This document shows, piece by piece, positions 8,244 through 8,712 of a stretch of 9,032 nucleotides of DNA (position 1 is the first letter of the stretch; each line of letters opens with the position of its first letter). Under the pieces are notes generated by a model. The model was not told the DNA's origin. It worked only from the letters and a program-made list of their open reading frames with translations, and did not search any database. The position numbers were made by a program, and so were the translations under genes. Source of the stretch: a virus (lineage: Duplodnaviria; Heunggongvirae; Uroviricota; Caudoviricetes); IMG/VR virus record IMGVR_UViG_2693429599_000008; one strand, written 5' to 3'.

Positions 8244-8338
8244 ATCCTGTGCTTCAGATTTTACTGGCCGCTCTTCGGTTAACGTCACCTGGAGGCACCA
8301 GGCACCGCATCACAAAATTCATTGTTGAGGACGCGATA

Positions 8339-8527
8339 ATGGAAACGTTATTACCAAACGTTAATACGTCTGAAGGTTGTTTTGATATTGGTGTTCTGCT
8401 CAGTAACCGGGAGTTTACGGAAGATGCCATTAAGATGAGAAAATATGAACCTTATCTTCTCAATGATAATTCCATACTTTCCAGAATTGCCCTTCTTGAA
8501 CTTGGTATTATCGGAGAACAGCAGTGA
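8339..8527 (+). CDS. Hypothetical small protein (62 aa)
   Basis: ATG at 8339 with GAGGA 7 nt upstream (8327-8331); AT-rich; stop overlaps the next ORF start (GTGA). Confidence 0.35.
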   Translation: METLLPNVNTSEGCFDIGVLLSNREFTEDAIKMRKYEPYLLNDNSILSRIALLELGIIGEQQ

Positions 8528-8712
8528 CTTCAGCATTTGCACTGGTGATGACCGTTTTTCTTATAACGGGTGAGCCACAAAATGTGATTACCGGAATTTA
8601 TGACAGTAAGTCATCCTGCATTCAGGTAAGGGACGAACAAAAAATCCCCGGTGAATGCCTCCCGTTAAAAAAAGTATCGCTGAACCTGAATAACGAAATA
8701 CCGGCTGGATAA
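8524..8712 (+). CDS. Hypothetical small protein (62 aa) with hydrophobic N-terminus
   Basis: GTG start overlapping the preceding stop; 'SAFALVMTVFLITG' could be a TM segment or signal peptide; two Cys residues. Confidence 0.3.
   Translation: MTSAFALVMTVFLITGEPQNVITGIYDSKSSCIQVRDEQKIPGECLPLKKVSLNLNNEIPAG

Follow-up and report, generated by a model that had tools for sequence, protein, structure and literature searches.

The two short plus-strand open reading frames (ORFs) near the right end of the window, by which we mean the whole analyzed stretch of 9,032 nucleotides (IMG/VR virus record IMGVR_UViG_2693429599_000008, Caudoviricetes), are best read as the dicB-ydfD pair of a Qin/PPompW-type lambdoid prophage, orphaned by a deletion and probably carried as silent cargo. 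Judged from family matches and alignments, this reading has a probability of about 0.9. The locus is assigned to the dicBF early-left operon of Qin-like lambdoid prophages, of which it forms the distal part. Few toxic small genes of the E. coli cryptic prophages have been studied as well as dicB and ydfD. Genes of both types are already known, and both proteins are placed by their sequences in characterized families; the sole locus-specific feature is the orphaning deletion, an ordinary product of prophage decay. The main value of the analysis is the correct annotation of two unrecognized ORFs as dicB and a ydfD-family gene.

Organization of the Two-ORF Stretch

According to the ORF list and the sequence, the first ORF (ORF1, the dicB gene, 8339-8527) runs on the plus strand from an ATG at 8339 to a TGA at 8525-8527 and comprises 62 codons. 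Its GAGGA ribosome-binding site is located at 8327-8331, 7 nt before the ATG. The second (ORF2, the ydfD-type gene, 8524-8712), likewise of 62 codons and on the plus strand, extends from a GTG at 8524 to a TAA at 8710-8712. This GTG and the ORF1 stop codon share 4 nt, GTGA, at 8524-8527, and a GGAG at 8513-8516 precedes the GTG by 7 nt, inside the end of the upstream gene. The hydropathy of the ORF2 product peaks at residues 1-15, with a Kyte-Doolittle value of 2.04 (2.11 for K-12 YdfD). The GC content of the stretch that holds the pair is 41.5% (37.6% in dicB), versus 47.5% in the window and 53.8% in the adjoining DUF1627 gene. These features reproduce the layout given in the first-pass annotation: an AT-rich pair of 62-codon plus-strand ORFs joined by a GTGA stop/start overlap, with a good ribosome-binding site ahead of the first and a hydrophobic N-terminus in the second.

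Assignment of ORF1 to DicB

The ORF1 product matches the Pfam DicB model PF05358 over residues 1-62 of 62, with an E-value of 3.7e-38 and a score of 129.5 bits (cut-off 27), and the NCBIfam DicB model NF049927 with 111 bits (cut-off 100). It is 61% identical to K-12 DicB, with 25/31 identical positions in the N-terminal 31 residues and 13/31 in the C-terminal half. Furthermore, 100%-identical copies of the ORF1 DNA carry the dicB annotation in complete genomes. On these matches, ORF1 is assigned as DicB, the 62-residue cell-division inhibition protein. The downstream synteny of DicB is preserved, with a ydfD-type gene directly adjacent and overlapping, followed by a YdfE-type exonuclease gene. 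Regarding the upstream side, dicF, the ydfA-like and ydfC-region genes, a dicBp-type promoter and a DicA-type repressor are absent from the window, whereas the same context is present beside a 100%-identical dicB allele in JE86. Since the missing context is a feature of the locus and not of the protein, membership in the DicB family is unaffected. A search for solved structures found none for DicB or for the YdfD-type protein.

The window dicB allele is common in PPompW-type and in EHEC/EPEC prophages. In a comparison with K-12, conservation is far higher in the leader (98% identity) and the first 31 codons (87% at the nucleotide level), in the region 8277-8400, than in the remainder of dicB (51%) or in ydfD (58%). 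This pattern suggests either that recombination left a mosaic boundary within dicB or that the leader and N-terminus have a conserved function. The folding signal of the leader is moderate (z = -2.1), and a possible hairpin takes in the dicB start codon. The diverged C-terminal half of the window DicB might change its partner specificity.

Assignment of ORF2 to the YdfD Family and the Downstream Exonuclease Gene

The ORF2 product aligns through residues 4-61 with positions 1-57 of the 57-position Pfam profile DUF1482 (PF07358; E 2.8e-15, 56.4 bits, gathering threshold 25) and matches phrog_1092 in PHROGs (E 1e-32); no NCBIfam model was matched. It is 48% identical to K-12 YdfD, annotated as "lysis protein", and shares the architecture of that family, a hydrophobic N-terminal segment followed by a conserved C-terminal domain with aligned motifs. 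Consequently, ORF2 is classified by these matches as a YdfD/DUF1482 family protein.

Downstream of the pair, a partial plus-strand ORF (8808-9032), cut by the end of the window and of the contig, matches the PHROGs family phrog_2082, "exonuclease" (E 5e-52), and represents the N-terminus of a YdfE-type exonuclease gene. The Pfam domain PF27430 (YdfE_N) is recorded on the exonuclease gene called in the public contig L004, and the full-length gene in JE86 measures 2,472 nt. Antisense to the exonuclease N-terminus, a 57-codon minus-strand ORF at 8775-8948, annotated as a gene in the public contig, has no family match. Two terminator-like hairpins follow this ORF on the minus strand, at 8765-8752 and 8723-8702, in the ydfD-ydfE spacer, for which the folding z-score is a modest -2.75; neither this value nor that of the leader supports a conclusion. 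These hairpins may be due to chance or may form a 3'-end stabilizing structure for the dicB-ydfD transcript.

The Deletion Joint Upstream of dicB

The origin of the altered upstream context is readily apparent from alignments to JE86, AR_0013 and K-12, in which similarity to the dicB locus sets in sharply at 8277, 62 nt ahead of the ATG. In 72 of the 75 other loci with enough upstream sequence, the break from the window falls exactly at position -63. Left of the joint, the window matches internal sequence of a DUF1627 gene with 100% identity. The intact gene of AR_0013 has 771 nt, and the window copy (7689-8288, minus strand; PF07789, E 5.9e-99) lacks the first 178 nt. The apparent GTG start codon of this 199-codon ORF, at 8286-8288, sits in the dicB leader and is therefore an artifact of the fusion. 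The joint itself, at 8277-8281, lies between the DUF1627 gene on its left and the dicB leader on its right and reads GGTTA, a motif present in both parental flanks in AR_0013 (L002 6078-6082 and 10809-10813); relative to the AR_0013 prophage, which holds both flanks, the window lacks 4,731 bp. By this comparison, 8277-8281 is shown to be the scar of a microhomology-mediated deletion of about 4.7 kb. The event left 62 nt of the dicB 5' leader, with its GAGGA, at 8277-8338 on the plus strand, fused to a truncated gene of the opposite strand.

The lost segment holds genes for a DnaC-like ATPase and an O-like HTH protein, ydaT, cro-like and repressor genes, the ydfA-like (DUF1391) gene and further small genes located between the repressor and dicB, as well as dicF. 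As judged from these alignments, the promoter region was lost together with this stretch of about 4.7 kb. No DicF was found in the window by Rfam (E<=1) or blastn-short, and in the positive control, the intact JE86 allele, Rfam placed DicF 175 nt upstream of dicB with a score of 76.7 bits.

Among 5,426 complete E. coli genomes, none has the left and right halves of the window side by side. When the 199-residue DUF1627 product specific to the fusion was looked up as an exact protein sequence, at least 10 draft contigs in NCBI proved to share this layout. One of them, CYFI01000005.1 (GCA_001283785.1), matches the window at its end with 100% identity; the remaining copies of the scar are 99.97-100% identical. 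The scar is a real genomic state. Being nearly identical, the scar-bearing copies are uninformative on selection acting on the orphaned genes.

Proposed Function of the Pair

In intact prophages, dicB and ydfD occupy a distal position in a repressor-controlled early-left operon. The order of the K-12 operon is dicBp, ydfA, ydfB, ydfC, dicF, dicB, ydfD and ydfE; dicB and ydfD are transcribed there on one polycistronic mRNA from dicBp, upstream of ydfA, under repression by the CI-like DicA (PMC10448788). The annotation of K-12 Qin lists dicB, ydfD ("lysis protein") and ydfE in the same order as in the window. DicB of K-12 binds MinC, sends it to mid-cell and blocks Z-ring formation (PMC6832061); via MinC, it inhibits the ManYZ inner-membrane proteins, and resistance to lambda rises about 100-fold (PMC6832061; PMC10448788). 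YdfD of K-12 binds IspG, blocks the MEP isoprenoid pathway and rapidly lyses dividing cells, and this lysis is prevented when DicB or SulA blocks division (PMC8835842). Single-residue truncations at the termini already weaken lysis by YdfD (PMC8835842).

By homology to the K-12 proteins, the window alleles would act on MinC and ManYZ (DicB) and on IspG (YdfD). With 13/31 identical residues in the C-terminal half of DicB and 48% identity in YdfD, the MinC, ManYZ and IspG activities are extrapolated, and since single terminal residues matter for lysis by K-12 YdfD, activity of the window YdfD allele is not guaranteed. The conserved 4-nt overlap and the Shine-Dalgarno motif within the last codons of dicB suggest that translation of ydfD is coupled to that of dicB. 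Such coupling would keep YdfD from being made without DicB, which masks its lysis.

The first-pass annotation had proposed, from the position of the genes, host-takeover or exclusion functions of the kil-like or sie-like kind. The functional part of this proposal gains support from the K-12 homologues, in which DicB is a MinC-dependent division inhibitor with ManYZ-based exclusion of lambda and the YdfD family is linked to lysis (PMC6832061; PMC10448788; PMC8835842). The positional argument holds as well, the same slot in E. coli F2_407_2_2 being annotated with a dicB fragment and a Rac-type kil gene. The resemblance to these families is confined to function and position, as neither ORF matched Kil (lambda/Rac) or SieB in Pfam, NCBIfam or PHROGs; as a MinC-dependent division inhibitor, DicB is the functional analogue of Kil.

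Conservation and Alternative Readings

DNA related to 8282-8800 is present in 4,528 of the 5,426 complete E. coli genomes, where the 99.8-100%-identical relatives are annotated "dicB" and "DUF1482 family protein". Full-size prophages of the PPompW type, among them those in Stx2a-phage records, have copies with 99.8% identity. For homologues outside Escherichia/Shigella, a scan of species-representative genomes gave 7 loci, all of them in Escherichia/Shigella with the exception of one on a probably mis-binned MAG contig. A K-12-type dicB locus was observed on the 22.9-kb scaffold JAGZPX010000007.1 of a metagenome-assembled genome labelled Veillonella parvula, which is almost certainly a mis-binned Escherichia contig.

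The coding strand is evident from the substitution pattern, evaluated as pN/pS by the Nei-Gojobori method on 29 distinct dicB-ydfD sequences from 90 loci. Values of 0.42 and 0.57 were obtained in the dicB and ydfD frames, and of 0.96-1.69 in the plus-strand off-frames of both genes. The dicB frame is open in all 90 loci; the full-length family matches and the [A/G]TGA overlap, found in 90/90 of these related loci, place the ORF pair far beyond chance. The first-pass annotation had raised the prospect that the conserved gene was instead the minus-strand ORF of 63 codons at 8351-8542. This antisense ORF does exist and is open in 83 of the 90 loci, an openness attributable to the close relatedness of most loci and to the AT-richness of the sequence, but its pN/pS of 1.59 is at the off-frame level, and it has no match in Pfam, NCBIfam or PHROGs, against strong family matches for the plus frames. 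The substitution pattern and the absent family matches rule it out as a real gene, and the chance that it is the conserved gene, with the plus-strand ORFs incidental, is negligible. Regarding control, the switch in strand polarity that had been noted at about 8290-8340 after a short gap is present: the minus-strand ORF on the left begins at 8288, and a 50-nt gap (8289-8338) separates it from ORF1. Divergent genes spaced in this way resemble a bidirectional promoter region, and the gap could be taken for a native divergent control region of the immunity-switch type, driving the pair rightward and a DUF1627 operon leftward. This is very improbable, because 8289-8338 is the end of the dicB leader, which the scar connects to internal sequence of a DUF1627 gene that lacks 178 nt of its 5' end, while in intact prophages the two flanks lie 4.7 kb apart and the true divergent repressor/cro region falls within that stretch. 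A native divergent promoter in 8289-8338 is rejected on the alignment to intact prophages and the promoter scan, which gave no promoter-like hexamer pair nearby; the gap is the dicB leader, brought to its present neighbor by the deletion.

A crude consensus search of 7600-9032 revealed no sigma-70-like site on either strand, and all upstream ORFs with family support are on the minus strand. With the promoter region, the repressor and DicF gone, no such site in reach and the upstream ORFs running in the opposite direction, the pair is probably transcriptionally silent or nearly so, an intact cargo in a prophage remnant. A promoter in the retained 62 nt, or one that has arisen in the fused DUF1627 sequence, could nevertheless give expression without DicA control. 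It is therefore conceivable, though unlikely, that a fortuitous promoter or antisense read-through maintains the pair at a low constitutive level, free of DicA control, and that it is kept for standing DicB protection against ManYZ-dependent phages. DicB-mediated exclusion is documented for K-12 (PMC6832061), an older study, as relayed in PMC10448788, proposed a second promoter upstream of dicB, and none of the scar-bearing contigs has damage to either ORF or either ribosome-binding site. However, the flanks are 100% identical to those of intact prophages, so that the deletion is recent and the intact ORFs are uninformative; moreover, no promoter-like site lies within 700 nt upstream of the pair, unrepressed DicB and YdfD are toxic or lytic, and the 2023 study itself argues, with primer-extension data, against an internal promoter in the K-12 operon (PMC10448788). 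It is similarly doubtful, and distinctly speculative, that the cassette is weakly and constitutively transcribed from a start in the DUF1627 sequence or the leader and has been co-opted as a DicA-independent exclusion module against ManYZ-dependent phages, its C-terminal half perhaps with altered partners. Silent carriage of an orphaned dicB-ydfD pair remains the preferred reading.

The Remainder of the Prophage Remnant

The gene content of the window identifies it as a heavily eroded lambdoid prophage whose late genes are encoded on the minus strand. Its second scar lies at 5812-5815, with GGTA microhomology, where about 4.95 kb are missing relative to intact prophages. Lost at this point are the genes for the Q antiterminator, RusA and DUF968, along with small ORFs and the part of a SASA-family esterase gene that encodes the N-terminal half; the 335-residue "DUF6645" ORF at 4840-5847 (minus strand) is the C-terminal remnant of the esterase, with a fortuitous start. 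As the Q antiterminator is lost, the downstream holin and endolysin genes have no activator. A third scar, at about 2427, involves the minus-strand ORFs 2387-2686 and 1912-2550; here the scar links Rz, cut to 99 residues, with the C-terminal end of tail protein J (Ig_GpJ_C), and the terminase, head and tail (morphogenesis) genes are absent.

At the left end of the window, positions 1-981 (minus strand) hold a full-length gene for a type III effector glycosyltransferase of the NleB/SseK family (PF24688, E 3e-181). The nleF gene, encoding a caspase inhibitor, lies just beyond the window on the same contig (L004 10641-11210). The presence of nleB and nleF marks the remnant as an element that carries effector genes and whose host resembles attaching-effacing E. 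coli. A type I toxin-antitoxin module, hok/sok, is preserved intact at 6015-6340 (minus strand; Hok PF01848, E 1.6e-22; Rfam sok, 120.5 bits), adjoined by a gene for the epoxyqueuosine reductase QueH at 6408-7094. Just downstream of hok and beside the second scar, a sub-threshold match to an IsrK-like small RNA was recorded at 5925-6006 on the minus strand (27.2 bits versus a gathering threshold of 50, E 0.011), ending in a good terminator hairpin at 5946-5929. This match could be the remnant of a prophage small RNA or due to chance.

Within the remnant, hok/sok, QueH, holin, endolysin and nleB are intact. Collectively, the scars show that the prophage was disarmed without damage to its toxic ORFs: separate microhomology deletions removed dicBp, DicA and dicF in one place and the Q antiterminator in another. 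The genes for the division inhibitor, the lysis protein, the holin and the endolysin were left intact beside nleB and nleF. This pattern fits the established picture of prophage domestication and involves no new principle.

Comparison with Known Systems

The closest reference for the first gene is DicB of K-12 Qin (b1575; PF05358), which belongs to the same family, has the same length of 62 residues, is encoded at the corresponding operon position, ahead of ydfD and overlapping it, and is preceded by a leader 98% identical to that of the window. The two differ in overall protein sequence (61% identity, with 13/31 in the C-terminal half) and in setting, as the window copy lacks the ydfABC-dicF-dicBp-dicA context. 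Similarly, YdfD of K-12 Qin (b1576, the IspG inhibitor; PF07358) shares with the ORF2 product its family, the hydrophobic N-terminus, the EQKIPGxC...EIPAG C-terminal motifs and the 4-nt overlap with dicB, whereas the window protein is 48% identical, has 62 instead of 63 residues and starts at GTG instead of ATG.

Kil of lambda and KilR of Rac, which are directed at FtsZ, resemble DicB as small division blockers of the early-left operon, in the slot flanked by the immunity region and the exonuclease gene. They differ in showing no sequence kinship, the only Pfam match of ORF1 being DicB, and in their target, since DicB acts through MinC and not directly on FtsZ (PMC6832061). In a very similar prophage of E. 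coli F2_407_2_2 (L096 16605-16936), the annotation of the slot between ydfC and the exonuclease gene lists a fragment of a dicB pseudogene and, after it, a Rac-type kil gene, so that two unrelated division inhibitors appear to have been exchanged at one position.

Finally, YdfD-type proteins resemble the single-gene lysis proteins (phiX174 E, Qbeta A2, LysM) in being small and membrane-associated and in inhibiting an enzyme of envelope-precursor synthesis without degrading the wall. In contrast to those proteins, the target of YdfD is IspG of the MEP pathway, not MurA, MraY or MurJ, and ydfD is located in the early operon of a double-stranded DNA lambdoid prophage that carries a holin and an endolysin.
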